Virus record (IMG/VR): IMGVR_UViG_3300009111_000006 | DNA: 57,871 bases | Strand: one strand, 5' to 3' | Source of the DNA: a virus | Shown here: piece by piece, positions 1,233-53,786 of the stretch | Numbering within the stretch: the stretch's first letter is position 1 | How the letters are laid out: every line of letters starts with the position of its first letter | Made by a program: the position numbers and the translations under genes | Notes under the pieces: model-generated | Seen by the model: the letters and a program-made list of their open reading frames with translations, nothing else | What the model was told of the DNA's origin: nothing | Database searches by the model: none

Positions 1233-4045
1233 GAGTTTATATCGCCCCAGATTACTCTGACAAGGACAAGAACGCTGACAATGGCGGTATTCGGCGCGTT
1301 GCCGAAGCCATGATGAAACACTTGCCAACTTTTGGCGTGGAAGTTGTACATGACCCGGACAAAGCCGATGTAATCTGCAACCATGGCGCGATGCTGGTGG
1401 AACGGCCTGGAGTTCCCAGCGTAAATGTAAATCATGGACTTTACTGGTCAAGGCAACCATGGGGCGCTGGATACCAGGAAGTCAATGAACTGGTGGTCGA
1501 GTCGATGCGCCATGCAGTTGCCCACACTGCCCCATCGCAGTGGGTATCAAACGCAATTCGCCGTGGTGGATTTTTCTACCCGGAAGTTGTGTATCATGGC
1601 GTGGATCCGGAAGAGTTTTCGGTCGGAGAAAACAAGGGTTACGTGCTCTGGAATAAGGCACGCGCAGACTTTGTTTCTGATCCGAACGACATGCTCAAAG
1701 TATCTACCTACCTACCAGAACGTCAATTCGTCACGACAATTGGAAACCCAGCCCATAATGTGAAAGTTATTGGGAATACACCATTCGAGAACATGAAGCA
1801 AGTTGTAGCTGATGCGGGAGTTTATCTTGCAACGGCACGCGAAACATTTGGGATTGGAACACTCGAGGCTATGGCCAGCGGCGTCCCTGTAGCTGGCTGG
1901 GATTGGGGCGGACAGAGCGAAATCATCGTCCAGGGCTATACTGGCTACCTTGCCCCTCCAGGAGATTTCCAGGCGCTGGCCGACTGCATTGAAAAATGCT
2001 TCGAGCACCGTGAACGCTTATCAGAGAACTGCATCAAGGATGTGCGTGAACGATGGACATGGGAGCCGCGCATCAAGCAGTATGCCGACATCTTCAAACG
2101 CGTCCATAAGAAATATAACCTGCGCGGCAAGAAACCAAAGGTGAGTGTGATTGTCACGGCCTACAAACTTGACCGTTATCTCCCCAAGTGCCTGGAGTCT
2201 ATTCGAGACCAGACCTTCAAGGACTTTGAGTGCCTGGTTGTTGACGACGTACCACTTGAGACAACTGCGGCGATTGTAAAGGACTTCTCCAAGAAAGACC
2301 GGCGCTTCCGATACGTCCCGGTAGTAAATAATCTGGGTTTGCCTGGCGCACGCAACTTTGGTTTCAGTCAGGCGCGAGGCCTATACATTCGTCATGTAGA
2401 TGCGGATGACTACATCGCCGATAATGCACTTTCCCTGGAAATAAAAGCACTGGACAATGACTGGGGCGTGCATATCGTTTATGGGCATCTCGAAGTCACC
2501 CGAGAAGATGGGTCTCGCATTCTTGAAAACGGAGAACCTGTGCGCAGCGGATGGCCGCCGGATCAATTCAATTGGATGCAACAAATGAGCCACCTGAACC
2601 AGTTGCCATCCTGTTCCATGGTCAGGCGCGAAGTATTTGAACGCACAGGTGGATACAGAGACCGCATGAAACGCGCAGAAGATGCTGACTTCTGGTGCCG
2701 GGCGACATCTGGCGGTTTTCGCGCCTATAAATTCACGCAGGCTGTTACTTACTTCCATCGCCAGCGTGGTGACAGCAAGGGTGCCATCGAGTGGCACGAA
2801 CAAGGCAAAGAACCTGACTGGACATCCTGGTTTCCGTGGAGAACAGGTGCAGGAGATTACGAGCAGGCGACTCAAATCATTCGTAAGTACGGTGGTGAGC
2901 ACCCATCTCCAAACTTTGTTCCATTTGGAGCACAAGGAAAGCCTCCTCGCTCGCTGCGTTACTGGTATGTGCATGACTATGCATATCCAGTAGTAAGCAT
3001 CATCGTTACTTGCGGACCAAGTCATAAGCGTTATCTGATGGACGCTCTCGACTCAATCCAGGCGCAAACATATCCTGACTGGGAATGTATCGTCGTGAAC
3101 GACACGGACGAACAGTGGGATAAAGACCTTCCAGGTGCGCCATGGGCAAAAGTCGTCAACATGCCGAGGAACAGTGGCGCAGCCGCGGCCAGAAATGCAG
3201 GATACGATCTCGCAAAGGGAAAGTTCATCGTTTGGATGGACGCTGATGATTACTGGCTTCCCTGGTATCTCGACAGAATGGTCAGCGCGGCGGAACAAAA
3301 CGATGGAGTCATCTTCTCGGATATGATCACGCGCACCAGCGAAAGCGTGTTCAAAATCCATCACTTCAACGAATTCGATTGCTCAAGGGTTCCGATCTCG
3401 ATGCAATACGCAGGTTCGTCTGTTTTGTATCCACGCAAAGTTGTCATGAGCGTTCGTAACTTGCAGGCTGGATGGGATGAGAAAGTTCCGGGGATGGAAG
3501 ATTGGGATTTCCAGGTTGCGGTTCACTCGCTCGGATATTGCGCATATCGCATCCCGGAACCACTGTTCGTATACCGGATGTACAGTTCAACCAAGCGCGA
3601 AAAAGACTATAATAATGGTGATGCCATAAAGGATTACATGGATAATAAGTGGCGTCACTATAGAACAGGAGCGAGACAAATGGCCTGCGGATGTTCAAAG
3701 AAAACTCTGGTGATGAAACCAGCCAATAGCACGTTGCAATCGTCTGGATCGTTTGCGAACGCAATCCAGCCCATGATGGTTGAAGGATCGCAGATGGTAA
3801 ACGTTGAGTACGTTGGCCCGGTTCAAGAACCTTTCACGATCAATTCTCGCGTTCAGCCTGGAATACGCTATCGCTTCGCGAACAATGATTACCATCGCGT
3901 AAAGACGGTGCTGATCCAGGATGCCGAATTCCTGATCAATCTTCTCGATGGAAATGCGGTTCCGCTCTACCGGGTTGTGCCAACCGGCACTGCTGCGGAA
4001 ACGAATGACCCGGCTGCATTCCTCGGACAGGCAATTCAAGCATGA
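1229..4045 (+). CDS. 938-aa fusion of three glycosyltransferase domains (GT4/GT1-type plus two GT2/GT-A) with an unassigned C-terminal domain of about 120 aa
   Basis: GIGTLEAMASGVPVAGWDWGGQSEII (EX7E-type GT-B). VSVIVTAYKLDRYLPKCLESIRDQTFKDFECLVVDD and VSIIVTCGPSHKRYLMDALDSIQAQTYPDWECIVVND (GT2). ATGA overlap with the upstream gene. Confidence 0.85.
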   Translation: MRVYIAPDYSDKDKNADNGGIRRVAEAMMKHLPTFGVEVVHDPDKADVICNHGAMLVERPGVPSVNVNHGLYWSRQPWGAGYQEVNELVVESMRHAVAHTAPSQWVSNAIRRGGFFYPEVVYHGVDPEEFSVGENKGYVLWNKARADFVSDPNDMLKVSTYLPERQFVTTIGNPAHNVKVIGNTPFENMKQVVADAGVYLATARETFGIGTLEAMASGVPVAGWDWGGQSEIIVQGYTGYLAPPGDFQALADCIEKCFEHRERLSENCIKDVRERWTWEPRIKQYADIFKRVHKKYNLRGKKPKVSVIVTAYKLDRYLPKCLESIRDQTFKDFECLVVDDVPLETTAAIVKDFSKKDRRFRYVPVVNNLGLPGARNFGFSQARGLYIRHVDADDYIADNALSLEIKALDNDWGVHIVYGHLEVTREDGSRILENGEPVRSGWPPDQFNWMQQMSHLNQLPSCSMVRREVFERTGGYRDRMKRAEDADFWCRATSGGFRAYKFTQAVTYFHRQRGDSKGAIEWHEQGKEPDWTSWFPWRTGAGDYEQATQIIRKYGGEHPSPNFVPFGAQGKPPRSLRYWYVHDYAYPVVSIIVTCGPSHKRYLMDALDSIQAQTYPDWECIVVNDTDEQWDKDLPGAPWAKVVNMPRNSGAAAARNAGYDLAKGKFIVWMDADDYWLPWYLDRMVSAAEQNDGVIFSDMITRTSESVFKIHHFNEFDCSRVPISMQYAGSSVLYPRKVVMSVRNLQAGWDEKVPGMEDWDFQVAVHSLGYCAYRIPEPLFVYRMYSSTKREKDYNNGDAIKDYMDNKWRHYRTGARQMACGCSKKTLVMKPANSTLQSSGSFANAIQPMMVEGSQMVNVEYVGPVQEPFTINSRVQPGIRYRFANNDYHRVKTVLIQDAEFLINLLDGNAVPLYRVVPTGTAAETNDPAAFLGQAIQA

Positions 4046-17038: not shown

Positions 17039-18508
17039 ATGGCAAAGATTTCTGCTTATCCCGATGGAGGTTCTCCGCAAAACTCTGACAATTTCATCGT
17101 TGCCAGGGCTGGTCGAAATTTCAAGTTACTCTGGTCTTCTATCGTGTCTGGATTGCAGACGACGCTGACCATTATCGAGTCGATGTTTTCTTTCTCGGAC
17201 ATTACCACGGCAAACTCGAGTACGACAAAGCACGGACTATTGCCAAAACTTAGTGGAGAAGCTGGTCAGTATTTGGGCGGGGATGGAAACTGGTACGACC
17301 TTCCGATAGTTTTAAATCTTTTCCTGGATAATACAGCCAGCAGCATTGCCGGGTACAAAACGCTTACCCAGACCAGACCTGTTGCTGCCGAAACAAATGT
17401 GAGCGCCAGTATACCTGCGGCGAATACCGTCATCGAAGAATTCGCGGCGGCGGCAGATCAGTTTGCATTCATAAGCGCTTCCGTTCTGCACATTCATGTT
17501 CATTTGGCAAAGACGGCAGGTGTAAAGACAGCAACGGCAAGCGTGAGTGTTTACCATAGAACCAGCGGCGGAACAGAAACACTGCTTGGATCGTCTGCGC
17601 AGACAGGGAACCTATCTGGAAGCAGCACGCCATACGACTTGGATGTTTCCGTACCAGACACAGCGTTCGCATCCACCGACCGGCTGGTTATAAAGTTCTT
17701 TGGGACTCCTGGAGGAGCGGGTACTGATCCGACTGTAGCTGTATACTTCCAAGGGTCAACAGATAGTCGTATTGAAATAGGAACATCCCCTTCCCTTTCA
17801 GGATATGCTCCGCTTGCATCGCCAGCGTTTACCGGGGTTCCTACTGCTCCAACGGCTGCGCAAGGAACAAATACAACACAAGTAGCTACCCAAGCGGCTG
17901 TTATTCAGGAAAAACTTGCTTTTGCTACGTCTGGAACCGATGTCTGGCGCGTTGGAACATCTCCGGGAGGTGTATCAGCTTTTTCTGGGACAATAGCATC
18001 TATTGCGGCTGACCGTCTATCCTTGACATACAATGTTGTCAGCGGGCAAGAGGGCGCAATGGTCGTTATTAGTACGAGTCAGTTGGCAAAGATGAGATTG
18101 TACAACACGACCAGGGGAAATTATGCTCTTATTAGCCAGAATGTTGTGGCGACAAACACAACTACCTTGACGGCGGCAGCTCCTGCAAACTGGCAAGTGG
18201 GCGACACAATCAATATAACAAGTCAGTTACCTGGTGGTGGAGCTGGATATGTTGACTTGGAAGTTACATCTGTGGTGAACGGGCGATCTGGTCTGATATT
18301 ATCTATATGGATAGCATCCGTAAATGTGAATGACGCATTCTGGGTTGTAGATGCGGCGGGTGGCTTTGCTGGATATATTGCGGAATCAGTCGCAAGTGCT
18401 TTGGTAAACTCCATAGCGTTTGTCACCCCCCAGTCATCCGCGTTTTCCGTGCAGTGGAATGGCTCCCCGACAACTCTTATTATCCGTTTATTAGGATACT
18501 TACCGTAA
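17039..18508 (+). CDS. Tail fibre protein
   Basis: LASPAFTGVPTAPTAAQGTNTTQVATQAAV is the classic fibre motif. Last gene of the late arm. Confidence 0.75.
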   Translation: MAKISAYPDGGSPQNSDNFIVARAGRNFKLLWSSIVSGLQTTLTIIESMFSFSDITTANSSTTKHGLLPKLSGEAGQYLGGDGNWYDLPIVLNLFLDNTASSIAGYKTLTQTRPVAAETNVSASIPAANTVIEEFAAAADQFAFISASVLHIHVHLAKTAGVKTATASVSVYHRTSGGTETLLGSSAQTGNLSGSSTPYDLDVSVPDTAFASTDRLVIKFFGTPGGAGTDPTVAVYFQGSTDSRIEIGTSPSLSGYAPLASPAFTGVPTAPTAAQGTNTTQVATQAAVIQEKLAFATSGTDVWRVGTSPGGVSAFSGTIASIAADRLSLTYNVVSGQEGAMVVISTSQLAKMRLYNTTRGNYALISQNVVATNTTTLTAAAPANWQVGDTINITSQLPGGGAGYVDLEVTSVVNGRSGLILSIWIASVNVNDAFWVVDAAGGFAGYIAESVASALVNSIAFVTPQSSAFSVQWNGSPTTLIIRLLGYLP

Positions 18509-18538
18509 AAAAGAGCCGGTTTCCCGGCTCTTTTTTTT
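18507..18538. terminator. Bidirectional intrinsic terminator between convergent arms
   Basis: AAAAAA-GAGCCGG-tttc-CCGGCTC-TTTTTTTT. Confidence 0.85.
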
Positions 18539-22867: not shown

Positions 22868-23258
22868 CTTTCACCTCCACAATCGAAATATTATGAACCG
22901 CCTTCATCAGCTTTACGCGGATGACATAGTCCCTGGTTCTGCGGCCTTTGACATCTTCGACGATCTCTCGTGATGTCCTATAATCCCAATACTGGAAGTC
23001 GGCAGTGTACTTTCCTATTCTTTCGCCATTGACCGTTATGCTCCAGGATGGATGGATAACGAGATCGCGGATTTCTCCGGCCTGTTCAAGTACCTTCAAA
23101 TATCTGTATCTGCGTCCCTCGACAAGGCTGTCGAATTTTATCCCATCGATGGTGACTTTCTTGGCATTGTACTTGTTTTTTCCTTTGCCCTTGACCATTG
23201 CTTCGTACTCTTCCTTGGTCACGTACTCGACATAGTCGTCTTTTCCAGTTACTGGCAT
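22854..23258 (-). CDS. DUF1064-family nuclease (Holliday-junction-resolvase-like)
   Basis: KYNAKKVTIDGIKFDSLVEGRRY...YTADFQY...EDVKG pattern. Confidence 0.7.
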   Translation of the reverse strand: MPVTGKDDYVEYVTKEEYEAMVKGKGKNKYNAKKVTIDGIKFDSLVEGRRYRYLKVLEQAGEIRDLVIHPSWSITVNGERIGKYTADFQYWDYRTSREIVEDVKGRRTRDYVIRVKLMKAVHNISIVEVKDGDF

Positions 23259-23259
23259 T

Positions 23260-23655
23260 TTATTTGCACTCCCCAACGTACTTAATGTTTACGTAGCCAG
23301 TAACACCCTCGGATGGTACCCAGACCTCGACAAAGCCATCGTAGCCATGCGGAGAGTAGAAAATCTGGACTGGCGTTCCGCGCAGCAGGGCATTTGGAAT
23401 AACTGTTGGCGAAGACTCCCATGGCTTACTGCGCAACCATAAAGCCTGATCTGCGGCAACACAACGCGTGAAAGCATTCGCCAACACTACTTCGTCTATA
23501 TCGTCACTGACCGCCAACACTTTCGCAACATTTTTTTCAATCCCCAGTGTTGGCATCGAGTGAATGTCAACACTGGGGACAGAACGAGATGGTTGTGTTG
23601 GCAGAGAACAACCTGCCAACACAACAAAGATAATCACTACCAACACTTTATTCAT
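23260..23655 (-). CDS. Lipoprotein with an SH3b-like domain
   Basis: Signal peptide with lipobox VLAGC. C-terminal LRSKPW...GTPVQIF...GFVEVW...GYV. Confidence 0.65.
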   Translation of the reverse strand: MNKVLVVIIFVVLAGCSLPTQPSRSVPSVDIHSMPTLGIEKNVAKVLAVSDDIDEVVLANAFTRCVAADQALWLRSKPWESSPTVIPNALLRGTPVQIFYSPHGYDGFVEVWVPSEGVTGYVNIKYVGECK

Positions 23656-24210
23656 GCTTCAACTCCATGCCAACAGTCCACTTCTCCAGCGGCAACACAA
23701 TCCGAAGGCACTGGCCGTCCTTCGTTTTCGTTCGCCAACACATTCCAGCCGCTTCCAGGTTCTCCACGGTTGTCCGTAGAATTTGTGCCAACAGTTCCAT
23801 TTCTGGATTGCTTGCGTTTGACATACTCTGCAATTGTGTTGGCGTAGAGTCCGTAGCTGGCGGTGTGCTTTCCGCGTTTTCCGCTGATAGTAAGGATGGT
23901 GCTACGTTTAGGGTCAACACTGGTGGATTTGCGGATAACGATGGCGGGATACTTGCGGTCGCATCCTTGAACCTGGATTGTGGTAGCTGGTCGTTCCGTT
24001 GGCGTGATAAGGATTTCATCGCTTTCAACCTTTCTGTTGGCAAAAGTGTTGGCAGTCCCCGCCACCCCTACTGTTGGCGGGGGTTGGTAGGGTCCGTGAA
24101 TTCGGTCTGCTTTTCCTGCCGCTCGTGCCCGTTTGGGGAAAACTGTTGGCGCGAAGCATCCTGATTATAGGCTTGCAACTGTTGGCGTGGCAACTGTTGG
24201 CGAGACTGTT
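23480..24210. repeat. Array of at least 15 exact TGTTGGC/GCCAACA boxes (consensus A-S-TGTTGGC) plus variants
   Basis: GCCAACA at 23480, 23513, 23615, 23669, 23734, 23787. TGTTGGC at 23548, 23596, 23837, 24035, 24047, 24072, 24144, 24180, 24195. Confidence 0.9.
23652..24065 (-). CDS. Hypothetical ORF, with the reading frame unresolved against the overlapping 23648..24043 ORF
   Basis: Two long ORFs in different frames both end at the lipoprotein start. The N-half of this one and the C-half of the other look protein-like. Confidence 0.3.
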   Translation of the reverse strand: MAGTANTFANRKVESDEILITPTERPATTIQVQGCDRKYPAIVIRKSTSVDPKRSTILTISGKRGKHTASYGLYANTIAEYVKRKQSRNGTVGTNSTDNRGEPGSGWNVLANENEGRPVPSDCVAAGEVDCWHGVEA

Positions 24211-24889
24211 GCAGGACATCTGGGATACCGTCCCCGTCTTCGTCAATACCAAGTTGGCGCAACACTTCCATCAGGGCAGCAGGAGAACCGTGCCGACTTT
24301 CGATTTCTTTGCGGCGGTTGACCGATTGTTGCGTGAGAGTCAGGATGAAATCGCCTGCCTTGATCTGTTCGCCCTGGAACTTAGCACGCGCCATGGCCTG
24401 GGCGGTTTGCTGTTGTGCGCGAATACCATCGTCAATGTAGAAATAAATCACAGCCATGATCGCGTGAATACTGGCGATCAGAACAAGCGTGATGACTGTA
24501 GCGATTTCGGCTGTTTGCACGCCAACACTTTCGACGCCCATCATGTTGATTACACCAGCCGCTACGCCAACACCTACGATGGAAAACAGGGCGATCACTG
24601 CGCCAGTCACAGCAATTTTCTTCTGCAATTCGCTGGCGTATGGGCGCACGAACAGGAATTCGTGCAGCAGGAGCGGTCCAAAGCCTGCCAGGAATGCCAG
24701 GATGCCGTACAGGGAAAAACCAGTCATCCACCAAACGGTGACACCAGAGATGATGTCCAGGAGGCAGAAGACGGCATTCGCGAATACGATGGCAGCATAG
24801 AGTGCCCAGTTGCTGGGTTCTTTCTTCTTGCGTTCAGGTGCCTTGACTGCATTGAGAAGTTCGTCGCGTTGGGTAAGTGGATTGCTCAT
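24068..24889 (-). CDS. Polytopic membrane protein (273 aa) with a Gln-rich tail
   Basis: At least four hydrophobic helices. AAAGGAAAA RBS. Confidence 0.6.
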   Translation of the reverse strand: MSNPLTQRDELLNAVKAPERKKKEPSNWALYAAIVFANAVFCLLDIISGVTVWWMTGFSLYGILAFLAGFGPLLLHEFLFVRPYASELQKKIAVTGAVIALFSIVGVGVAAGVINMMGVESVGVQTAEIATVITLVLIASIHAIMAVIYFYIDDGIRAQQQTAQAMARAKFQGEQIKAGDFILTLTQQSVNRRKEIESRHGSPAALMEVLRQLGIDEDGDGIPDVLQQSRQQLPRQQLQAYNQDASRQQFSPNGHERQEKQTEFTDPTNPRQQ

Positions 24890-27327: not shown

Positions 27328-28677
27328 TCAGGCGTTTGTGTCTATAGTCCTAAAAGATGCGTTCTCAAACTTCCCATAGGTTTGCCTGAACAGCAAGTCA
27401 AAACGTCCAGTGGGTCCATGGCGATACTTGGCGAGGTGGCAGTGCTTGATACCCGGATTGCCGCTGTCTGGGTTGATAAACAACACCCAATCTGCATCCT
27501 GTTCGATGTCGCCGGTTTCCTTCAGGTCTTTGAGAACCAGCTCGGAGTCCTGTCCGCGGGTGTCAATATCGCGGGAGACCTGGGCGGCTGTGATCACAGG
27601 CATATCGAGCTGCACGGCGATCTTCGAGATGTAGTTTGATGCAATCGCAACCTGACGCACGCGGCTTTCGGCTTTCGCTTCAAACTTCCCGATGTAATCA
27701 TTGAAAAGCATATCGCACTTGCCCTGTTGCTGCATCTGGGCGATACGGGAGTAGAGCGCGATCGGATTGCGTTCATCGATAATAGTCAATGGCCATGTAG
27801 AAATTTGTCCAATAGCATCATTTACGGCTGTATGTTCGTCGTCTGTCAAGGTACCATCCTGAATCTTCTCGGAGTTGATTTTGGTCAAGGCTGAAATCAG
27901 GCGGATGGTCAGGGCTTTTGCGGTCATCTCCATGGAGTTGAACACAATCGCTGGTCGGTTCAGGCGTGTTTCGATGTGTGTGATGGTGGTCAGCATCCAG
28001 GCGGTTTTTCCCTGACCAGGGCGACCAGCTACGATCCCGGATTGTCCAGTACGAAAGCCTTTCTTGAGCTTGTCGAAATCGATCAGTCCTGTCGAAAAAC
28101 CAGGAACGACACCATTGCGCATGACACCTTCGACATGGTCATAGGTCATGCTGGCGGCATCTCGGGCAGTAATCTCGCTTTTTTGTGAGTGGCTTGCGGC
28201 CACGTTTTGCAGACTGCCAACGCTGTCAGCGATAACTTTGCCGACTTCGGCACTCAGGTCAAAGGCACCCTGCGCAATACTATTGGCTGTTTTTATGAGT
28301 CCGCGGCGAACGCTGTACTCTTTGATCTTAGTAGCATACTGCTTGGCATTCTCGTAGGATGCACCAAGGCTGTCATTCACACAGCCGGTCAGGAAGTTAA
28401 AATCAATTCCATCTGCCATCCATGGGAGCGAATCGCCTGCCTCGTCCAGGATGGTGATGATGTCGGCCTGGACATCCTGTTCACTGAGTTTTGCAATCTT
28501 GTTCCAGATAAACCGGCATCGTTCGATGTAGAAATCTTCGGGGGTGACAATTTCCGAGGCGGCTCGGAACATCACAATCGATTGCAGGGCACAGCCAATC
28601 AGGGCACGTTCAAGCTGAGCGTTGTGCGGGATTGTGTTCAGGGTTGTTTCGGTGTCAAATTCTGGTTCAGGCAGCAT
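27328..28677 (-). CDS. dnaB: Replicative DNA helicase DnaB
   Basis: PHNAQLERALIGCAL N-terminal domain. Walker A GRPGQGKTAW. RecA-like C-terminus. The ORF is open to 28710. Confidence 0.9.
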   Translation of the reverse strand: MLPEPEFDTETTLNTIPHNAQLERALIGCALQSIVMFRAASEIVTPEDFYIERCRFIWNKIAKLSEQDVQADIITILDEAGDSLPWMADGIDFNFLTGCVNDSLGASYENAKQYATKIKEYSVRRGLIKTANSIAQGAFDLSAEVGKVIADSVGSLQNVAASHSQKSEITARDAASMTYDHVEGVMRNGVVPGFSTGLIDFDKLKKGFRTGQSGIVAGRPGQGKTAWMLTTITHIETRLNRPAIVFNSMEMTAKALTIRLISALTKINSEKIQDGTLTDDEHTAVNDAIGQISTWPLTIIDERNPIALYSRIAQMQQQGKCDMLFNDYIGKFEAKAESRVRQVAIASNYISKIAVQLDMPVITAAQVSRDIDTRGQDSELVLKDLKETGDIEQDADWVLFINPDSGNPGIKHCHLAKYRHGPTGRFDLLFRQTYGKFENASFRTIDTNA

Positions 28678-29824
28678 GTTTATTCTCCACTTCCGTGATT
28701 CTTTTTCCAATCCAATAGCCTACTGGAACGGCGATGGCGTTACCGAGTTGACGATAGCGAGCGCTATCTGACTGTCCTGATGTCCATCCAGTCGGAAACC
28801 CCTGTAATTTTTCGCATTCTTCAGGAGTAAGCCTACGAACACCAAAGATATGATCGTTTCGTAGAATGGAAAGTTTTTGATATGCACCATGAGCACTCTT
28901 TCCATCGCCCGTGTGCATAAGCGGTAGAGAAATTCCTTCTCCGTGCGTAAGCCCATCACGATTTGCATCAAAAATAAGCGGCTGGGCAGGATTAGAACGC
29001 AGGCTAATCATATCGGGAGTGCTAATGGAATTGTTTTGCTCGACGATCCCAATCAGGTGCCCGCTCTCGGCGGCTTGCTGTGTTGTCATGGCGTGTCCGT
29101 GCCGCTTTGAGTGCGCAGCAAGAGTTCCGACTATGTAGGTTTCTCTGCTTGGATCATACCTGCCGCTTCTTGAAGAGCTTGCTGTAATTGCGTGGGTAAT
29201 GCTCGTCCCCGGTTTTTTGCTCTCTTGAGTATCCCCTGCGCCGCTTTCGGACTCAAATAAAACTTCTGCGGAACGTCCGTCTCCAGAATGTCCCACAATG
29301 AAGACTCTGCGACGGCGCTGGGGCACTCCGAAAAACTGAGCGTCAAGCACCCGCCAGGAGATTTTATATTTTGGTCCCCATGCGAGGCCTGCGCTTTTCC
29401 AGCCTCCGACAGGGATTTCCGGTACGCATCCGGTAAGGACGCCAATAACGATTGCAAAGTCTTTCCCGTCATTGGACGACAGTAAACCGGGGACATTCTC
29501 TGCAACGAACCAGTCCGGGATAAACTCGTCAATAGTTCTTGCAAATTCGTAGAACAATCCTGATCGCTCTCCAGCAAGACCTTCCCTTTTTCCGGCAATG
29601 GACAAGTCCTGGCAGGGAAATCCGCCGACGAAAACATCGGCATAGGTAATGGTTTCTTTGTTCGCATTGCGAATATCTCCTATGTTTTTCACTTGCGGCC
29701 AGTATCGTTTCAAAACAGAAGATGCCTGGCTGTCCTTTTCGCACTGGAACAAGGGTGTCATTCCAGCGTTTTCAAAAGCCAAATCAAAACCGCCAATTCC
29801 TGAAAAGAAGCTGTTGAATGTCAT
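28667..29824 (-). CDS. DNA (cytosine-5)-methyltransferase
   Basis: FFSGIGGFDLAF (motif I), GGFPCQDLSIAGKREG (IV), ENVPGLLS (VI), QLGNAIAVPV (X). ATGA coupling at 29824. Confidence 0.9.
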   Translation of the reverse strand: MTFNSFFSGIGGFDLAFENAGMTPLFQCEKDSQASSVLKRYWPQVKNIGDIRNANKETITYADVFVGGFPCQDLSIAGKREGLAGERSGLFYEFARTIDEFIPDWFVAENVPGLLSSNDGKDFAIVIGVLTGCVPEIPVGGWKSAGLAWGPKYKISWRVLDAQFFGVPQRRRRVFIVGHSGDGRSAEVLFESESGAGDTQESKKPGTSITHAITASSSRSGRYDPSRETYIVGTLAAHSKRHGHAMTTQQAAESGHLIGIVEQNNSISTPDMISLRSNPAQPLIFDANRDGLTHGEGISLPLMHTGDGKSAHGAYQKLSILRNDHIFGVRRLTPEECEKLQGFPTGWTSGQSDSARYRQLGNAIAVPVGYWIGKRITEVENKHAA

Positions 29825-30132
29825 TTCTCGCATGACAAAATCTCCCCCAGTAGCTTTATCTGGGCATCCATGATGTTCATGATTTTTGAGATCAGCATCC
29901 ATGTTCGTGCAATGTGCTTATGCAGGGCGAGCGGAGTGCTGCTATCAACAACTTCCATGTGCTTGGCAAGTTCTTCCTGCGTGATTTCCAGGCAGGTGAC
30001 ATGAAAGTTGTACAATGCGCGTTCGTGGGTATCTTCCCAGCGAAAGTGGCATTTCTTGCATTCGACGGTGCCATTTGAAACGACAGGCCCGTTGCAATAA
30101 GGACATGGAAGAGCGATGGTTTTAGCCAACAT
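29821..30132 (-). CDS. Zinc-ribbon protein (103 aa)
   Basis: CPYC...CKKC. Confidence 0.5.
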   Translation of the reverse strand: MLAKTIALPCPYCNGPVVSNGTVECKKCHFRWEDTHERALYNFHVTCLEITQEELAKHMEVVDSSTPLALHKHIARTWMLISKIMNIMDAQIKLLGEILSCEK

Positions 30133-31174
30133 TTTCGTAGTCCGCTTTCATCCAGGCGGGCAGTTCTGTGTTTGCATCCTGAGACGCCTGGATTTCGATG
30201 GCCTTATTCTCTCGGGAAAGACGTGCTGTTTTTTGCCCAATCACCCAATGGGTAAGGCTGCGGGGGGATGAAATCCAACTGACTTTTCCTTCGGACTTGA
30301 TGACTTCCATGGCCTTGACAACATCCACTGGTTGGCAGCGCTGCGCCATCCAATCTTCAAAAGTGGATACCCATTCGTGGAAGTTCCGCTTGGTGTATTC
30401 CAGACCAGTGGCTCCACAGACTGCTTTCCCAAACGAGTGATAAATCTCAGGAAGCTTTGTCCATGAACGGCCAGCGGCAAGCTGGTTTTGCTTCAGCAAG
30501 AAAGCGAGTTCTTTGTCGGATGCTTCGATGATTGATTTCAGTTCGCTCTCAGAGAGTGTGTTTCCCTGTGTTTCAGTGGGTTTTGTGTTTACGTCCGACG
30601 ATACCCCTGGTATTACGTGGGACGTAAGGCTGGTATTACGTGGGACGTAAGGCTTCTCTTTTTTAGGTGTTACGTCCGACGTAATACTTCTTTTTTGAAT
30701 ACTTGCTGATGTAGCTTTTTTTGTGCGATATTTCGCGATTTTTTTGCGATCTTCCAGCCGCTTTTCAAGTCCATCCATATCGATGGCGCTTTCTTGATCC
30801 TGCAACCAGTATTCTTGGCCGTTTACGAAATCTGGTTTATCCGTAGTCGGAACGAGTACCTTATAGGTCTCGAGTCCATCAAGAGCCTTTCTCACGGCCT
30901 GGATACCTAACCCGCAACCCCTGGAAAGGATAGAGCCGTCTTTCTTTGATACGATCCCATCGGTAAATTGCGACAGGCTAATCTTATCCTTTCGGCTGAT
31001 GATGTTGTCCTGAAATCCCAAAATTCTGCGGATTGCATAAAACAAAACCGTATTTTCTTCTGGGGTTAGATAGGACATTAGATTATCTACAAAGTAATTC
31101 GGGCACTGGAAAGAATTCGGGATGATTGAATTTCCACCCGCGCTATACCTTGCCCGCAAATCTTTCACTTCCAT
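30122..31174 (-). CDS. Replication initiator, lambda O-like
   Basis: N-terminal NSFQCPNYFVDNLMSYLTPEENTVLFYAIRRILGF (Phage_rep_O-like winged helix). Iterons lie inside the linker-coding part. AGGAGG RBS. Confidence 0.7.
   Translation of the reverse strand: MEVKDLRARYSAGGNSIIPNSFQCPNYFVDNLMSYLTPEENTVLFYAIRRILGFQDNIISRKDKISLSQFTDGIVSKKDGSILSRGCGLGIQAVRKALDGLETYKVLVPTTDKPDFVNGQEYWLQDQESAIDMDGLEKRLEDRKKIAKYRTKKATSASIQKRSITSDVTPKKEKPYVPRNTSLTSHVIPGVSSDVNTKPTETQGNTLSESELKSIIEASDKELAFLLKQNQLAAGRSWTKLPEIYHSFGKAVCGATGLEYTKRNFHEWVSTFEDWMAQRCQPVDVVKAMEVIKSEGKVSWISSPRSLTHWVIGQKTARLSRENKAIEIQASQDANTELPAWMKADYENVG
30589..30750. other. Candidate replication origin: four dyad boxes TTACGT-N3-ACGTAA plus a flanking A+T-rich tract
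   Basis: Boxes start at 30589, 30613, 30636 and 30670. The middle two belong to a perfect 23-bp tandem repeat (30608..30653). T-runs at about 30690..30745. Confidence 0.65.
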
Positions 31175-31197
31175 TTCTACCTCCTAAACAAAAACTC

Positions 31198-31264
31198 CTT
31201 TTGTCTGTGCTTCGTGCCTTGTGGCGATCCCAGAGCAGGGGGAAGGCAACGAGGCACAGACAAA
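31198..31264 (-). terminator. Long imperfect hairpin (about 20 bp) followed by a U-rich run, just upstream of the initiator RBS. Terminator or attenuator.
   Basis: 31198..31217 pairs with 31244..31264. The - strand RNA continues AAAGGAGUUUUUGUUUAGGAGG. Confidence 0.5.
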
Positions 31265-31317
31265 AAGAGTCCGTCTGCCCTAATCGTATTTTGGCCGCCA
31301 CAGCCATTGAAATTATT

Positions 31318-31683
31318 CTATAACGGGTCTTCTTCTTTGTCAACAGGCTTTTCCGGCTCAGTTCCCGGAGCGTATCGGAAGCCCACATCGACATAGGTAA
31401 AATTGCAGTCTGGGTCACGCGTGGTAATCTGCGCATTCATGTCGATGTCAAGCGTCACGATTTGTGCGCCCTGATCTTTGATGCGGCGGGCGAAGACTTC
31501 CAATGCGCGTGCGCGGCAGGTTTCACGCTTTCCGCGATACTCAGGCAGCGGGCCGACGTACAGCGCACCTGCGTATTTATTGAGTTCTTCGACGATGTCG
31601 CCGAACTTGATTTTCCCAAAATGTTCGTTCATGTACTTACGAGCTTCTTCAAACGTTTGTGGGGGTTTGATTTTTTCGTTCAT
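31318..31683 (-). CDS. Hypothetical protein (121 aa)
   Basis: GGAG RBS. Confidence 0.5.
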   Translation of the reverse strand: MNEKIKPPQTFEEARKYMNEHFGKIKFGDIVEELNKYAGALYVGPLPEYRGKRETCRARALEVFARRIKDQGAQIVTLDIDMNAQITTRDPDCNFTYVDVGFRYAPGTEPEKPVDKEEDPL

Positions 31684-31687
31684 GTTT

Positions 31688-32134
31688 TTACTCCATCCAG
31701 GCGGATAAATCTTTCTTCATGTAGACCCGGGGTTCTTTTTTGACAGTCGCAACGGAAGCGGGAATCTTTCCTGACAATGCAACCTGTTCAAACACTTCCA
31801 CGTCCAACTTGAGAGACAGTGCCATGGGCATGTTCTTTTGGCACCATTCGATGGCTTGCGCCTGATCGTACACAACGACATCGAATTCTTTGATCTCCCA
31901 CGGCAAGCCACCCGGCTTCTTTTCCTTCGTGGTATCGAACAGGGAGAGAGCACGCTTTTGGACTTCGTCTGTCAATAAGGCAGCGTCTTCGGCGTACTTT
32001 TTCTGTGCAGCTTCGAATGATTTGTATTCGTCCGTAGCCTTTACAGCGGCGAGCATCTCTTTCAGCTTCGCCGCCACGAGATCGGCGTTGTGCTTGGCGA
32101 TGGCCAAAGCCTTTATTTGCTGAGAAATCTCCAT
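31688..32134 (-). CDS. Coiled-coil protein, tentatively Gp157/Gam-like
   Basis: Start at MEISQQ overlaps the upstream stop (TAATG). The family call is from memory only. Confidence 0.4.
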   Translation of the reverse strand: MEISQQIKALAIAKHNADLVAAKLKEMLAAVKATDEYKSFEAAQKKYAEDAALLTDEVQKRALSLFDTTKEKKPGGLPWEIKEFDVVVYDQAQAIEWCQKNMPMALSLKLDVEVFEQVALSGKIPASVATVKKEPRVYMKKDLSAWME

Positions 32135-32454
32135 TACTTTTTCTCCATTTCTTTTTGAACACATTCGATTTTGTCCCATCCAGTGACAAGGCGGATCGCC
32201 CTGGCGACATTGAAGGGGCGTTCTTCAATAATGCCGAGTAACTCCATGTTCTCCAAGTAGTAGCCGATAACGCTGGATGACACGTTGAAGCGTGCGGCCA
32301 TCTCACGCAGGGAAGGGGTGAAGCCGTGTTCTTTCTGGAAGCCCTCGATGAATTTCGCGAGTACCACCAGCTTTCCAATCTTTCGGAACACAGGCCTCGG
32401 GCGGCTTGTATCAGAGCGGGAGTTTAGGTATGAGAATTGCACTTTCGCCTCCAT
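32134..32454 (-). CDS. Winged-helix DNA-binding protein resembling the LexA N-terminal domain
   Basis: GFTPSLREMAARFNVSSSVIGYYLENMELLGIIE. Confidence 0.55.
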   Translation of the reverse strand: MEAKVQFSYLNSRSDTSRPRPVFRKIGKLVVLAKFIEGFQKEHGFTPSLREMAARFNVSSSVIGYYLENMELLGIIEERPFNVARAIRLVTGWDKIECVQKEMEKK

Positions 32455-32626
32455 TCAGGATTTCTTCTGCATCGATAATAACAACATAATGCCGTGTCGG
32501 GATGGTGGTCATGTTCTTACCGTTATCTCCACCAGTAGGGGCATAAGAAGCATTTTGCCCGCTTTTGCGCAGTTCGCGAATGCGTTCGAGAGCATCATCC
32601 AGTGACGTAGCAAGGATTCGGGTCAT
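32411..32626 (-). CDS. Hypothetical protein (up to 71 aa)
   Basis: ORF only. It overlaps both neighbours. Confidence 0.3.
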   Translation of the reverse strand: MTRILATSLDDALERIRELRKSGQNASYAPTGGDNGKNMTTIPTRHYVVIIDAEEILNGGESAILIPKLPL

Positions 32627-32921
32627 TCGCTTTCTCCAGTACCATGTTATTCATGGCAGTTTTTGGATTACAAATCGGGCAAAAGTAAGATGGTTTATGA
32701 CAGTTTTTCAATCGGCGTTCGAAGTCTCTTCCGGCACCCTTCCAGGTTCTTACGACTTTCCAGGTGATACCGGCCTCGGTGACGTGCTTCATGATGACCG
32801 CTCCGCTGCCATTCTTGTGGTGACGCATCCTAAAACTCAGGTTGCTATCTTTTTCGACAAACCCAATGTAGTGCTGGGCGTGAGAAAACTTTTCATCGAA
32901 GTGGATAAGGTAGACTGTCAT
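32595..32921 (-). CDS. GIY-YIG-like nuclease domain protein
   Basis: VYLIHFDEKFSHAQHYIGF ... R..HH..G.... Confidence 0.5.
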   Translation of the reverse strand: MTVYLIHFDEKFSHAQHYIGFVEKDSNLSFRMRHHKNGSGAVIMKHVTEAGITWKVVRTWKGAGRDFERRLKNCHKPSYFCPICNPKTAMNNMVLEKANDPNPCYVTG

Positions 32922-32967
32922 TGTATCTCCTGTTAGCATTATAGAACATCGTTTCTATCAAACCAAT

Positions 32968-44249: not shown

Positions 44250-44993
44250 ATGCAGTGCCAGGCGTATGTGCGCAACTGCCGTGAATGTGGATACCACGAT
44301 GATCATCGCGCCAATGGAAACTGCCCGCAGTGTTGTGCTGACAGGCGCTGTCGCGAGAACGCAGTGCCGGGATATAAATGGTGCGATCGGCACGGTGGGC
44401 CTGCGCCTGGAAGAAACTTCTACGGATTGGGAAGGCGTATGACAACCGGGTCGGGCAGTTCATTTCCGCTGACAAGGCTGGCATCGAAATATCGCCAGAT
44501 GATCCAGGATGGCCGCATACTTTCGAACCGGCACAGCTTGGAGATTGTACGCCATCGCATCGAGCAGTTGGCAGATCGCATCGATCTGAATGATGCGCCG
44601 GATAGGTTTGCGGTTCTCTCCAAGCTATGGAAGGAATACACAAAGAAGATTGACGAGAAGCAGCCGCTCGAAGCCCATGCCGTTCGCCTGCAAATCGATG
44701 AGCAGTTCGAAGCTGCCTATCACGATTACGCAGCCTGGAAACAGATGTTCGAAGCGCTTGACCTGGACAGGAAGATGGTCGAGAGCGAAGTGAAAGTAGC
44801 CAAGGAAATTCAGGCAATTATGACCGCCGAGGAAGCATACGAGTTTGCGGCCAAGTTGCTGGGAGCGATAATGAATGTTGTTACAGACGCAGGGCAACTC
44901 CGCAGAATCCAATACGAGTTTACGCGACTTATTGGCGAAAAGCCTGAGCAGCGGGCTGGGTCAGGCGGCGGAGAAGTTATCGAAGTCGAATGA
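44250..44993 (+). CDS. Putative small terminase subunit with an N-terminal Cys-rich zinc finger
   Basis: Called only from its position directly upstream of the large terminase. Confidence 0.4.
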   Translation: MQCQAYVRNCRECGYHDDHRANGNCPQCCADRRCRENAVPGYKWCDRHGGPAPGRNFYGLGRRMTTGSGSSFPLTRLASKYRQMIQDGRILSNRHSLEIVRHRIEQLADRIDLNDAPDRFAVLSKLWKEYTKKIDEKQPLEAHAVRLQIDEQFEAAYHDYAAWKQMFEALDLDRKMVESEVKVAKEIQAIMTAEEAYEFAAKLLGAIMNVVTDAGQLRRIQYEFTRLIGEKPEQRAGSGGGEVIEVE

Positions 44994-47439
44994 TCCGGCG
45001 AGCTGGATAGAAGACAACTTCTACATCCCGGAGACCCGCAACGATCCCGATCTGCGCGGGTTGATGCGTTTGCAGGACTACCAGCGGGACGCGATCCGGG
45101 AAGCATTGTCCAAAGATGAAAATGGGCTGTATAAGTACTCGATCATCGTCTGGTCCGACATCAAAAAATCTGCCAAGTCGTCAATCGCCGCAGCGGTTGT
45201 GCAATATGGTCTCGAACATACGGAATGGGGCGAATACTACATCATTGCCAACGATCTCAAGCAGGCTGACTCGCGTGTGGCGCATTACCTGAGAAGGTCG
45301 ATCCAGTTGAACGCGGACAAGTCCACGAAGTATTCCACGCGTGGATACAAGATAACTTCGCAGAACGGCTCTTTCGCCGAAGCGATCCCGATTGATCCAA
45401 GCGGAGAGGCCGGATCGAACGCGGATGGAATTTTCTTCTCCGAATTGTGGGGGGCGAACGAAGAGCAGAAACACATCATGTGGTGTCTCGATCAGGACAG
45501 TGACGTTTTGACCCGGAAGGGCTGGAAAAAAGGCGTAGAACTTACGCGCCTCGATGAAGTAGCTGTCTACAATTATGGAAAGATTGAGTGGGAACATCCG
45601 CGTTCTGTTTTTATCGAGCATTACACTGGCAAGATGCACTTATACGAGCATAAAAACTTTAGTCTGATGTGTACTCCCGATCATCGGCTTTATGGACGAT
45701 ATTCTTATGCTGGAATGAAGTCAGGGCGATATGACACATTCGGAGTGATGCGATCCAACGTTCTGCGAGAAAGTGGATACGGATATTACCATCCGGTTTT
45801 GACTGCCGATCCGGTTGCGGGCGAAATCGACATTCCGAAATATATTTACATCGCAAAAACAAAATTCAAGCCGGAGAAATATATCCCGTGGGACAAGTGG
45901 GCTTCGTTCATGGGGTTATATCTCACCGAGGGCAGCACAGATACTTTCCGTGGGGTTCCTTGCCATGTGAAAATTTCTCAATTGCGGGAACCCCATCCAC
46001 AAAGGTATGACCGAATTCGCGAAATCCTGGAAGATGTTTTTGGCGATTGGCTAAATGTAAACAAACGTGACGGATTTTCAATTGGAAGCACAGAGCTTGC
46101 CAAGATTACAAAAAAGTTTGGAACGACATGGCAGAAACGCATTCCGAGGACGATCATTGAAAGCCCGCCGGATGTACTCGAAAAATTCCTGGAAGGATTT
46201 TGGCTTGGAGATGGAAGCAATCCAATCAAGTCTGGAACGAAAACTTATTGCTGTGCAAGCGAGGGACTCGCAGACGATTTGCAAGAAATCTTATTTAGAC
46301 TTGGATACCGATCGTCGAAACGCCCCCATGAAAAATATTGGAGAGTGAGCCAGATACTTGGATCGTTTGATGTTTCTGTCAGCAAAAAATCCTGGCAGGA
46401 AGTCGATTACTCCGGGAAAGTCTGGTGCCCGGTTGTCTCTACAGGATTGTTTATTGCAAGAAGGGAAGGCAGACCATTCGTGACCGGTAACAGTGAAATG
46501 ACGCTTTCGCCGACAAAATACGGAAAGTCCTTCCGTTGGGTGGAGTCGTATGCCGGGTTCATCGAAGAGTCGAAACTTCTGTACAGCCTGTACGAAACTG
46601 GCGTTAAACGTGGACAGCTTCTCTGGCCGGACAGGTTATATCCTGTAACTGGCGGCGCACCGGCACCGTTGGAACTGTATGTCAACCGGGATGCCCGTAT
46701 GTTGTGCCTGTGGAATACACAACCTCGCTGCCCATGGCAAACACCGGAGTATTACCAGTCAGAATCGCAGGTTTTGCTGCCTAATCAGTTTGCTCGTATG
46801 CACCGCAACCAGTGGGTGGCGAGCGAGGAAGTTTTCGTGCCGGTCGAGTGGTATGACGCTTGTTTCCATGGATCCCAGGATTGGCCAACGTATGACCATA
46901 AAAAGCATCCGATGATTATCGCCCTGGATGCTGGTGTTTCCTCGGATAACTTCGGTCTCTGGATGGGATGCAGGCACCCTGCATCATCGAAGGATGTGCT
47001 GACACAGTATGTCCAGCGCTGGAAGCCGCCGATCGGTGGAAAGATAGACTTCCAGGGCACCGTTGAAAATCCGGGCCCGGAGCGTGTTTTGCGACAACTT
47101 GTAAAAGAGTATAATGTAATAGAAATTGCCTACGATCCGTACCAGCTTCATGACATGGCAACCAGGCTCAAGCAGGAAGGACTTGCGTGGTTTCGACCGT
47201 TTGGTCAGGGCAACGAGCGCTTGCTTGCCGACAGCCAGTATCGGGCACTTATTAGAGATCGCAGGTTTTGGCACCGCGGCGAACCCGAGATGCGCGAGCA
47301 TGTTATGAACGCCAATGCCAGCGTGGATGAAAAGAACGACAATAAATTGCGCATCGTGAAGCGGAACGAAAGTAGCAAAATAGACCTGTGCATCACGGCC
47401 AGCATGGGTTCGTATGAAATCTTACGACTAAACCTGTGA
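44875..47439 (+). CDS. terL: Terminase large subunit interrupted by an intein (518-aa extein)
   Basis: Position before the portal gene. Terminase-like N- and C-terminal regions. The only in-frame ATG is at 44875, which gives a 119-nt overlap with the upstream gene. Confidence 0.75.
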   Translation: MLLQTQGNSAESNTSLRDLLAKSLSSGLGQAAEKLSKSNDPASWIEDNFYIPETRNDPDLRGLMRLQDYQRDAIREALSKDENGLYKYSIIVWSDIKKSAKSSIAAAVVQYGLEHTEWGEYYIIANDLKQADSRVAHYLRRSIQLNADKSTKYSTRGYKITSQNGSFAEAIPIDPSGEAGSNADGIFFSELWGANEEQKHIMWCLDQDSDVLTRKGWKKGVELTRLDEVAVYNYGKIEWEHPRSVFIEHYTGKMHLYEHKNFSLMCTPDHRLYGRYSYAGMKSGRYDTFGVMRSNVLRESGYGYYHPVLTADPVAGEIDIPKYIYIAKTKFKPEKYIPWDKWASFMGLYLTEGSTDTFRGVPCHVKISQLREPHPQRYDRIREILEDVFGDWLNVNKRDGFSIGSTELAKITKKFGTTWQKRIPRTIIESPPDVLEKFLEGFWLGDGSNPIKSGTKTYCCASEGLADDLQEILFRLGYRSSKRPHEKYWRVSQILGSFDVSVSKKSWQEVDYSGKVWCPVVSTGLFIARREGRPFVTGNSEMTLSPTKYGKSFRWVESYAGFIEESKLLYSLYETGVKRGQLLWPDRLYPVTGGAPAPLELYVNRDARMLCLWNTQPRCPWQTPEYYQSESQVLLPNQFARMHRNQWVASEEVFVPVEWYDACFHGSQDWPTYDHKKHPMIIALDAGVSSDNFGLWMGCRHPASSKDVLTQYVQRWKPPIGGKIDFQGTVENPGPERVLRQLVKEYNVIEIAYDPYQLHDMATRLKQEGLAWFRPFGQGNERLLADSQYRALIRDRRFWHRGEPEMREHVMNANASVDEKNDNKLRIVKRNESSKIDLCITASMGSYEILRLNL
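45484..46491 (+). mobile_element. Intein (336 aa) with a LAGLIDADG homing endonuclease
   Basis: Starts at Cys (W|CLDQDSDVLT). Block B TPDH. LYLTEGST and FLEGFWLGDGS. Ends ...FVTGN|S. Confidence 0.8.
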
Positions 47440-53750: not shown

Positions 53751-53786
53751 ATCCAAGGGAAGAAATTGAATAAACAGGAGGAAGCA

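Follow-up and report, generated by a model that had tools for sequence, protein, structure and literature searches.

The 57,871-bp viral DNA analysed here (IMG/VR virus record IMGVR_UViG_3300009111_000006; this whole stretch is called the window, and all array positions are given in its coordinates) carries, between positions 23404 and 24572, a dense array of a short box, TGTTGGC or its complement GCCAACA, which is laid over three protein-coding genes, is constrained at the level of DNA, and is kept at the same position in relatives while the word of which it is built changes from lineage to lineage. We consider the chances somewhat better than even that this array is a cis-acting set of about 20 sites for a sequence-specific DNA-binding protein encoded by the phage, most likely the product of a small open reading frame (ORF) inside the array that we call ORF-A, and that array and protein make up a word-diversifying cassette which is attacked by fusion proteins of the T5orf172 family. 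The elements on which the argument turns are the following.

23404..24572, both orientations: the full box array, with 18 exact copies and about six degenerate ones (TGTTGCC, TGTTGAC, TGTTGGT, CGTTGGC)
23480..24201, both orientations: the core of the array as first noticed in a reading of the sequence alone, with 15 exact copies
24068..24889, minus strand: gene for a 273-aa protein, seemingly polytopic (about four hydrophobic segments by eye), with a soluble C-terminal part bearing a GDGIPD motif; 6 boxes
23652..24065, minus strand: ORF-A, 137 aa with a GTG start, encoding a small basic protein and lying wholly within the array; 6 boxes
23260..23655, minus strand: gene for a 131-aa lipoprotein-like protein that has an LAGC lipobox and a signal peptide; the first two thirds of the gene hold 6 boxes
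24164..24193, minus strand: sigma-70-like promoter pointing toward ORF-A, TTGCCA-18 nt-TATAAT, 11 of 12 positions, a consensus match only
23592..23625: perfect 13-nt inverted repeat with an 8-nt spacer, GTTGTGTTGGCAG / CTGCCAACACAAC, formed by two opposed boxes where the lipoprotein gene encodes its signal peptide
23529..23591: 28-nt inverted repeat (79% complementary) formed around the box at 23548 and a degenerate box at 23566; the inverted repeat noted earlier at 23542-23579 belongs to it

The box occurs 32 times in the window, well above the 10.1 +/- 3.3 copies found in dinucleotide-preserving shuffles, none of which (0 of 100) reached 32, and 18 of the exact copies are packed into 23404-24572 at about one per 65 bp. 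The sequence-only reading had listed 15 copies, each of which proved to be an exact match, and three more, at 23404, 24521 and 24566, have the same flanks as those 15. In both orientations the array follows the consensus A-(C/G)-TGTTGGC-(G/A), with C or G at position -1 and G or A at position +1 in all 18 copies and A at position -2 in 12 of them; the extended consensus proposed earlier was A-(C/G)-TGTTGGC-G. The remaining 14 copies of the window are isolated, as had been noted, and their flanks fit in only 4 cases, which is the chance rate, so that the array is unique in the genome. One-mismatch copies, of which at least five had been claimed, number 9 in 23200-24700 versus about 4 expected, and five or six of them have the consensus flank. 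A genome-wide search for strongly clustered k-mers returned two clusters only, namely the array and the iterons of an O-like replication gene described below.

Within the array the boxes are spaced irregularly, at 12-326 bp, and their orientation is mixed, reading FF RRRRRRR FFFF RR FF R along the sense strand. The large-scale dyad that had been placed around 23815 is only approximate, and the pattern is not kept in relatives. Both of the perfect inverted repeats described earlier are present, the arms at 23592-23625 reaching 13 nt. The G+C content of 23.3-24.7 kb is 45-62% in every 100-bp segment and no AT-rich segment is found; the flip, or minimum, of the GC skew near 23.8 kb arises from the G-rich boxes switching orientation.

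All genes from about 18.5 to 44 kb lie on the minus strand, and the three genes under the array were called identically by an independent gene caller on a second assembly of this phage. The array crosses the middle and the 3' part of the 273-aa gene, the whole of ORF-A and most of the lipoprotein-like gene, and its boxes occupy six frame/orientation combinations, so that the peptides they encode include RQQ four times, AN three times, VLA four times and PT three times. When codons were redrawn from the usage of the phage with the three proteins held fixed, 1.6 +/- 1.2 boxes were obtained (maximum 7 in 2000 trials), and when the genes' own synonymous codons were permuted, 4.4 +/- 1.5 (maximum 11), versus the 18 observed; an artefact of coding is thereby ruled out. 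The proteins themselves appear to have been bent by the boxes: the Q-rich tail of the 273-aa protein contains four box-encoded RQQ motifs, whereas its homologues have the motif once. The excess over codon resampling and this distorted tail place the constraint on the DNA, in agreement with what the sequence-only reading had concluded from boxes crossing three ORFs in different frames.

Relatives were reached through homologues of the 273-aa protein and of ORF-A, as contigs of about a dozen lineages (labelled with L numbers below), all of them metagenomic, and their arrays were found by searching every contig, without a preset word, for its most strongly clustered k-mer. A dense array was present at the same position, within or just 3' of the membrane-protein gene, in every contig that extended far enough, and it was built of the following words.

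L121, L124, L126: R-TAGTGGCA, 10-12 copies
L127-130, L140-142: S-TGTTGTC, 9-16 copies
L131, L145-147: GATACTGG(CA), 10-14 copies
L132, L136, L148: YGTTGGCA, 7-17 copies
L122, L137, L138: CGTTRGKA, about 12 copies
L133, where the contig ends: GTTAGTGGCG, 4 copies
L143: TGTTGGCA, 12 copies

These words look like variations on one theme (TGTTGGC, CGTTGGC, TGTTGTC, TAGTGGC, TACTGGC). Conservation of the boxes in related phages had been proposed as a test of the array, and its outcome was divided, in that the array is conserved and the word itself is not. Among L121, L124 and L126, which share 75% nucleotide identity across the array region with one another, not with the window, the 8 shared boxes (56 columns of the alignment) are all invariant versus 66% of the other columns; the naive probability of this invariance is about 1e-10, for boxes that were picked as shared. 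The unshared boxes of these three genomes are replaced by boxes at other positions, yet 10-11 are kept in each genome, and because the substitutions fall mostly at third codon positions, the region is coding here as well. In the same contigs (L121 6700-7170, L124, and L126 1697-2086), the ORF that follows the membrane-protein gene is open upstream in the -1 frame relative to that gene and has no clear ATG; at its 3' end, this ORF of the TAGTGGCA lineage runs into the beginning of a further conserved ORF of 101 aa, the next in order. No orientation pattern or spacing grammar common to the lineages was found, and the array of L145 is nearly one-directional, with 12 boxes versus 2. Taken together, the codon resampling, the invariance of boxes among diverging relatives and the kept position with lineage-specific words bear out the general interpretation first offered from the sequence, namely that of a protein-binding array.

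Two explanations that need no phage-encoded binder can be weighed at this point. According to the first, the boxes are Chi-like or other words set by the host, or they simply follow from coding and composition. Accumulation of Chi sites in some phages is described in the abstract of PMC12315714; the word here, however, differs between the window and relatives that share 75% identity among themselves, the boxes are clustered at one syntenic spot and not spread genome-wide, and the by-product version is excluded by the codon resampling, and we give this explanation almost no weight. According to the second, which we hold to be very improbable, the selected feature is an RNA structure in which complementary boxes pair within the long minus-strand transcript. 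The sense RNA of 23380-24220 does fold better than its shuffles (z = -4.9), and opposed boxes give perfect 13-nt hairpins. In contrast, what is conserved is a fixed word and not compensatory change or pairing, the L145 array with its 12 boxes against 2 cannot pair with itself, and Rfam gave only two matches, with E values of about 0.8 and far below gathering scores.

The gene order of membrane protein, small ORF and lipoprotein-like protein is kept even where all three families differ: a membrane-protein gene stands at this position in all relatives, and a lipoprotein-like gene follows the array in most of them, the positional counterpart in L130 having SH3_3/SH3_4 domains. The membrane proteins of L127 and L145 belong to one family (49% identity). 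L127 has ORF-A with TGTTGTC, and L145 has the type of small ORF found in L131 with GATACTGGCA; L131, for its part, has a membrane protein of the window type, but GATACTGG boxes. Judged from these comparisons, the word tracks the small ORF and not the flanking membrane gene.

ORF-A is a real gene and belongs to a family of 27 cluster representatives with the conserved core IQIQGSDRKYPAIVIRRK..GATIxTISKxGKH..LY..Y..I.AY..RR; its C-terminal tail, which contains a W, is conserved too. An AlphaFold model from a 28-sequence alignment gave this core as three beta strands and a long helix between disordered tails, with a pLDDT (predicted local distance difference test) score above 90 for approximately residues 30-85; the model from a 4-sequence alignment was poor (pLDDT 41). 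A suspected likeness of the core to AP2 or integrase arm-binding domains is unsupported. Within the family, one subfamily goes with TGTTGTC and another, comprising the window and L143, with TGTTGGC, and in those members that were checked translation begins within a box of the respective lineage, the start reading GTGTTGTC (V-L-S) in L127, L130 and L140 and GTGTTGGC (V-L-A) in L143. Among the small array ORFs of the other lineages, two types, A2 and A3, were found by hhalign with larger profiles to be homologous to each other (probability 95.5%), and A3 is possibly related to the L131 type (45%). ORF-A showed no relationship to the small array ORFs of other lineages in the same comparisons, larger profiles included, so that at least two proteins, either unrelated or unrecognisably diverged, occupy the same positional role.

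In the window, three boxes overlap the promoter-like site that points toward ORF-A, one just upstream of the -35 element (24195), one in the spacer (24180) and one just past the predicted start (24144). Together with the start-codon box of other members of the ORF-A family, this overlap makes autoregulation of ORF-A through the array plausible. A sigma-54 promoter and an NF-I-like palindrome were also considered for the TGGC-containing word and rejected by eye, the spacing not fitting either.

The relatives further encode proteins in which the small array ORFs recur as domains. P0043 and P0109 are T5orf172/MUG113 (GIY-YIG-like) proteins that have the ORF-A core as their C-terminal domain, and the other types are fused likewise, namely the L131 type in a protein of L136 (E 6e-9), the A3 type in a protein of L130 (54% identity, E 9e-21), the L133 type in P0111 (E 4e-12) and the A2 type, which was detected by a hidden Markov model (HMM). 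A search for T5orf172 homologues returned 102 proteins, of which 101 have at least 140 aa and most have 165-198 aa. An array-ORF type makes up the C-terminus in 89 of the 101 (58 of the L131 type, 15 of A2, 14 of A3 and 2 of ORF-A), and 9 have no assigned type; several of these 9 visibly resemble the A2 or the L133 type. The fusion genes lie within or beside the array region, and in the four contexts available the fused domain differs in type from that of the resident array.

L130: resident TGTTGTC with ORF-A; fused to T5orf172, A3-type
L136: resident YGTTGGCA with A2; fused to T5orf172, L131-type
L145-147: resident GATACTGGCA with the L131-type ORF; fused to T5orf172, ORF-A type
L148: resident TGTTGGC with A2; fused to T5orf172, L131-type

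Sequences that carry a fusion are essentially free of the words that its fused domain would be expected to recognise. This heterotypic rule, which holds in 4 of 4 contexts, has a precedent in Odn of phage ICP1, a T5orf172 nuclease with a RepA_N-type iteron-binding domain copied from the RepA protein of the satellite PLE, which cuts the PLE origin at its iterons (PMC8263062). T5orf172 genes are also described, in the abstract of PMC10448857, as homing-endonuclease-like genes located at phage recombination boundaries. By analogy with Odn, the small array proteins would be sequence-specific DNA-binding modules for the boxes, and related phages may turn copies of these modules against one another's arrays, so as to attack or convert them; the resetting of the word from lineage to lineage would then be explained. 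As a separate observation, a 114-aa ORF at 32595-32939 of the window has a GIY-YIG-like N-terminus by eye (VYLIHFDE...HYIGF) and a 56% identical counterpart in L135; it had no PHROGs match and no match to a small HMM made from three T5orf172 fusion domains.

ORF-A is most likely the protein that would bind the boxes and is the best candidate for that part, because the word follows the small ORF, because the ORF-A core is fused to T5orf172, and because other array ORFs are fused in the same way. It is also conceivable, and in our estimate somewhat unlikely, that the array is bound by another phage protein, for instance the winged helix-turn-helix (wHTH) protein of 32134-32454 or an unannotated early protein, or by a host protein, and that ORF-A merely underlies it. 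Such a binder would be in keeping with the lack of a recognisable DNA-binding fold in ORF-A and with the occurrence of similar words (YGTTGGC) beside two protein families that are not detectably related, and a wHTH protein is conserved in several relatives. On the other hand, a different small ORF brings a different word even between flanking genes that stay in one family, and a single T5orf172 family employs five array-ORF types as its variable domain at the C-terminus. A host factor would leave the different words of close relatives unexplained, and no boxes are found near the wHTH gene. More generally, nothing ties to the boxes the binders named in the sequence-only reading (the genes beginning at 32134, 35244, 34877, 44250 and 30122), and the last of these, the O-like protein, has iterons of its own. 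The 273-aa membrane protein was considered as well, and no evidence for it as box binder was obtained.

The mechanism that we propose with ORF-A as the binder is as follows. ORF-A would be made from the promoter inside the array and would bind each asymmetric box of 9-10 bp as a separate unit, regardless of orientation or spacing, so as to coat about 1.2 kb and feed back on its own expression. Array and binder would form a specificity cassette, conserved in the whole of this phage group, always set between the genes for a polytopic membrane protein and a lipoprotein-like protein and provided with its own word in each lineage. This cassette would be both important and exposed enough for related phages to direct T5orf172 proteins at it. 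In a mixed infection, T5orf172 proteins carrying the array-protein domain of another lineage would cut the array of a competitor, as Odn does with its target, and this cutting may be what drives the diversification of the words. By way of the membrane protein that is encoded upstream and conserved along with it, the complex might anchor or organise the phage DNA at the envelope, and it might act in addition as a roadblock to transcription or replication and as an autoregulator; an array of such density would be expected to hinder replication forks as well as RNA polymerase. The gene order kept across families is the only positive hint of function and suggests cooperation of the DNA-bound protein with proteins of the envelope, and it is with low confidence that we take the complex to handle the genome rather than to initiate replication or packaging.

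Several points weigh against this proposal. ORF-A had no match in Pfam (E values up to 10), in PHROGs or in a profile search of PDB sequences, and Foldseek with its model found no known DNA-binding fold, the best E values being 0.67 in PDB and 0.04 in BFVD. Words of the TGTTGGC type accompany two families without detectable kinship, ORF-A in the window and L143 and A2 in L132, L136 and L148. The link between word and small ORF is partly unavoidable, since the boxes overlap the ORF and the two would move together. The window has no T5orf172 gene, so that only the target side is present in it; no T5orf172 fusion with the window's own subfamily of ORF-A was found; and the fused C-terminal domains could instead be protein-protein adaptors. 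About 20 sites far exceed the needs of autoregulation, and the conserved gene order is all that speaks for anchoring at the envelope. All relatives are metagenomic contigs.

As for its role, we rank envelope-linked handling of the genome with autoregulation first, followed by a fork barrier or late replication element, then a centromere and lastly a packaging site. In transcription order the array is preceded by genes for the O-like initiator (30122-31174), a C5 DNA methyltransferase, a DnaB-like helicase (27328-28710) and an N6/N4 DNA methyltransferase, and it is followed by those for a DUF1064 protein (assigned in PHROGs to a family of Holliday-junction resolvases), an HNH protein and a Gp3-like protein. 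The array lies 6 kb from the O-like gene, inside which an origin of the lambda type was recognised.

30122-31174, minus strand: O-like gene
30589-30750: lambda-type origin inside the O-like gene, with four copies of TTACGTSSGACGTAA at 30589-30687, followed by T-rich tracts

Two of the four TTACGTSSGACGTAA copies, at 30607 and 30630, sit in an exact 23-nt tandem, and the boxes of the array are unrelated to these iterons. In L122, the corresponding part of the O-like gene contains GGACAGAAC iterons. The window further has, in the gap that precedes its O-like gene, a 22-nt inverted repeat (31194-31270, 91% complementary, with a 33-nt spacer), and beside it a near-consensus sigma-70-like promoter on the minus strand (31315-31343, TTGACA-17 nt-TAGAAT); repeat and promoter may be an operator or a regulatory hairpin of the replication operon.

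Tight arrays of bound proteins are known to block replication forks, and it is possible, though in our estimate somewhat unlikely, that the array serves replication. It would then be a second origin, used late, or else a programmed barrier that stalls forks from the O-type origin 6.5 kb away and so triggers recombination-dependent synthesis of concatemers. The array stands at the downstream end of the replication module with its O-like and DnaB genes and directly upstream of DUF1064, VRR_NUC and HNH nuclease genes, and the target of Odn is an origin (PMC8263062). For phage SPP1, fork stalling by G38P bound at oriR is proposed in the abstract of PMC3485210, and the position of the array between an O-type origin and resolvase/nuclease genes recalls that arrangement. 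However, neither the array nor its borders contain an AT-rich element for unwinding, and the genome has a complete lambda-type origin at another place. ORF-A, moreover, is smaller than known initiators and does not resemble them in this respect, and the minimum of the GC skew at the array is made by the boxes themselves. Since the boxes are unrelated to the O iterons, the array is not an oriR-like second site for the same initiator. The second origin suggested in the sequence-only reading is disfavoured by the iterons and T-rich tract at 30589-30750.

The idea of a centromere-like or anchoring site, which would position the phage DNA through a partition NTPase or the neighbouring membrane protein, is unlikely in our view. 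In the ParR/parC and omega systems, the array overlaps the promoter and start of the binder's gene, much as boxes here lie over the promoter-like site and the start for a small putative binder, and the order of membrane gene, small ORF and lipoprotein gene is kept though the families differ. Against this, no ParA, ParM or TubZ (and no integrase) was detected among the ORFs scanned, which were those of the minus-strand block compared with Pfam and PHROGs and did not cover every small ORF; the classical form of the centromere-like role proposed earlier therefore finds no partner here. The spacing of 12-326 bp is irregular, unlike that of phased centromere repeats, and no relative was found as a prophage or plasmid in 185,579 reference bacterial and archaeal genomes, which gives no sign of plasmid-like carriage. 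Megablast and tblastn searches of 50,697 deposited phage genomes likewise returned no relatives.

A pac site bound by the small terminase subunit had also been proposed. Known pac sites are likewise clusters of short repeats over coding sequence, for instance the pac hexamers in pacA of P1 and pacL/pacR of SPP1. The array, however, is 5-10 times larger than these, it is internal and not at the contig ends in all long relatives, and the terminase gene lies far from it.

44875-47439: large terminase gene, about 20 kb from the array; a candidate gene for the small subunit lies directly upstream of it

We consider a packaging site decidedly improbable. The large terminase ORF is itself unusually long (854 aa), its terminase match being restricted to approximately residues 636-848; its N-terminal 600 residues are unassigned but for one weak match, to a PHROG family that bears the annotation thymidylate synthase.

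The window seems to be a complete genome, since the longest contig with the same protein is 57,889 bp. Other features of it stand apart from the array. Between the end of the plus-strand block (18508) and that of the convergent minus-strand block (18537) there is a 13-bp stem flanked by A and T runs (18507-18536), which looks like a bidirectional terminator. A 945-aa protein encoded at 1208-4045 has several glycosyltransferase-type matches, and a nucleotide-sugar epimerase-like gene is located at 53766-54734, which suggests sugar modification of the host surface, the virion or the DNA. A scan of IMG/VR for patterns of three boxes returned mostly in-frame tandem coding repeats, and none of the hits resembles the window. 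L115 (248-633) and L119 (2641-2903), two IMG/VR sequences with a GC content of 59-64%, have tight tandem arrays of the same word, TGTTGGC, with a 9-bp period, composed of TGTTGGCAA or TGTTGGCTG in two opposed blocks; these look like intergenic iteron or centromere-type arrays and have no sequence similarity to the window. In L143 (IMGVR_UViG_3300025030_000131), about 25-36 copies of CGACCAAGTGA-like units are crowded into 500 bp at 2110-2632, approximately 3.5 kb upstream of its own TGTTGGCA array and unrelated to the boxes analysed here.

The array has the defining features of none of the known classes tested. A further reading, which we regard as doubtful and put forward tentatively, is that array and embedded protein constitute a previously undescribed cis/trans module that is neither origin, pac, par nor operator, but a nucleoprotein patch of 1 kb that couples the chromosome to envelope proteins encoded by the flanking genes and is at the same time the battleground of the T5orf172 contest. 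If the interpretation of the array as the binding region of ORF-A is correct, a conspicuous cis element whose word is reset in each lineage would be an easily recognised genomic marker, and it would offer a natural experiment in the co-evolution of a DNA-binding protein with about 20 sites that lie in coding sequence. The approximately 100 T5orf172 proteins would extend the principle of Odn from one pair of phage and satellite to a network of competing phages, and such a network of fusions would help to explain mosaic boundaries and the replacement of modules in phage genomes. Boxes and binders might also serve as orthogonal pairs for DNA-protein recognition, and the fusions as programmable nucleases whose targets could be predicted from the cognate array.

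Among known systems, the iteron arrays bound by O at the lambda origin and by Rep/RepA at the origins of SaPI and PLE resemble this array in that multiple short repeats lie over coding DNA, as lambda ori does within O, in that lineage-specific words change with a linked protein, and in that the sites are targets of specificity mimicry. The boxes described here are, however, shorter (7-10 bp), about 20 in number, irregular, in both orientations and spread across three genes; an AT-rich region does not adjoin them, no initiator-like domains are present in the 137-aa protein that is their putative binder, and a lambda-type origin is found elsewhere. An origin of the lambda type would be expected to show repeats of about 18-20 bp, four or five in number, within the initiator gene or close beside it, with an adjacent AT-rich unwinding region. 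The array consists of boxes of 7-10 bp located 6 kb away and has no such region; it is the iterons of the O-like gene that adjoin a T-rich tract.

The ParR/parC system, the omega heptads and RepC of pAD1 (8-bp TAGTARRR iterons) share with the array many words of 7-8 bp and a small binding protein whose own promoter lies within the array, protein and promoter being putative here. Their repeats are contiguous, phased and intergenic and adjoin a gene for a partition NTPase, and none of this was seen in the present array. The stoperators of mycobacteriophages, which are bound by gp71 of L5, and the C1 operators of P1 are likewise asymmetric sites bound singly by a phage regulator, and they can block elongating RNA polymerase. 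Those sites are dispersed genome-wide and are mostly intergenic, and stoperators have one orientation relative to transcription, whereas the sites in the window are clustered in 1.2 kb, inside genes and in both orientations.

A further comparison is that with Odn (Gp88) of ICP1. In the relatives' fusions the T5orf172 domain comes first and is followed, at the C-terminus, by the borrowed domain, which is unrelated to RepA_N; the contest would be among related phages and not between phage and satellite, and there are about 100 variants with at least five domain types, which would cleave DNA by analogy with Odn, the window representing the target side only. In both cases, a T5orf172 domain is joined to a domain copied from the site-specific DNA-binding protein of another element, the target is a repeat array, and the target words are missing from the genome that carries the fusion.

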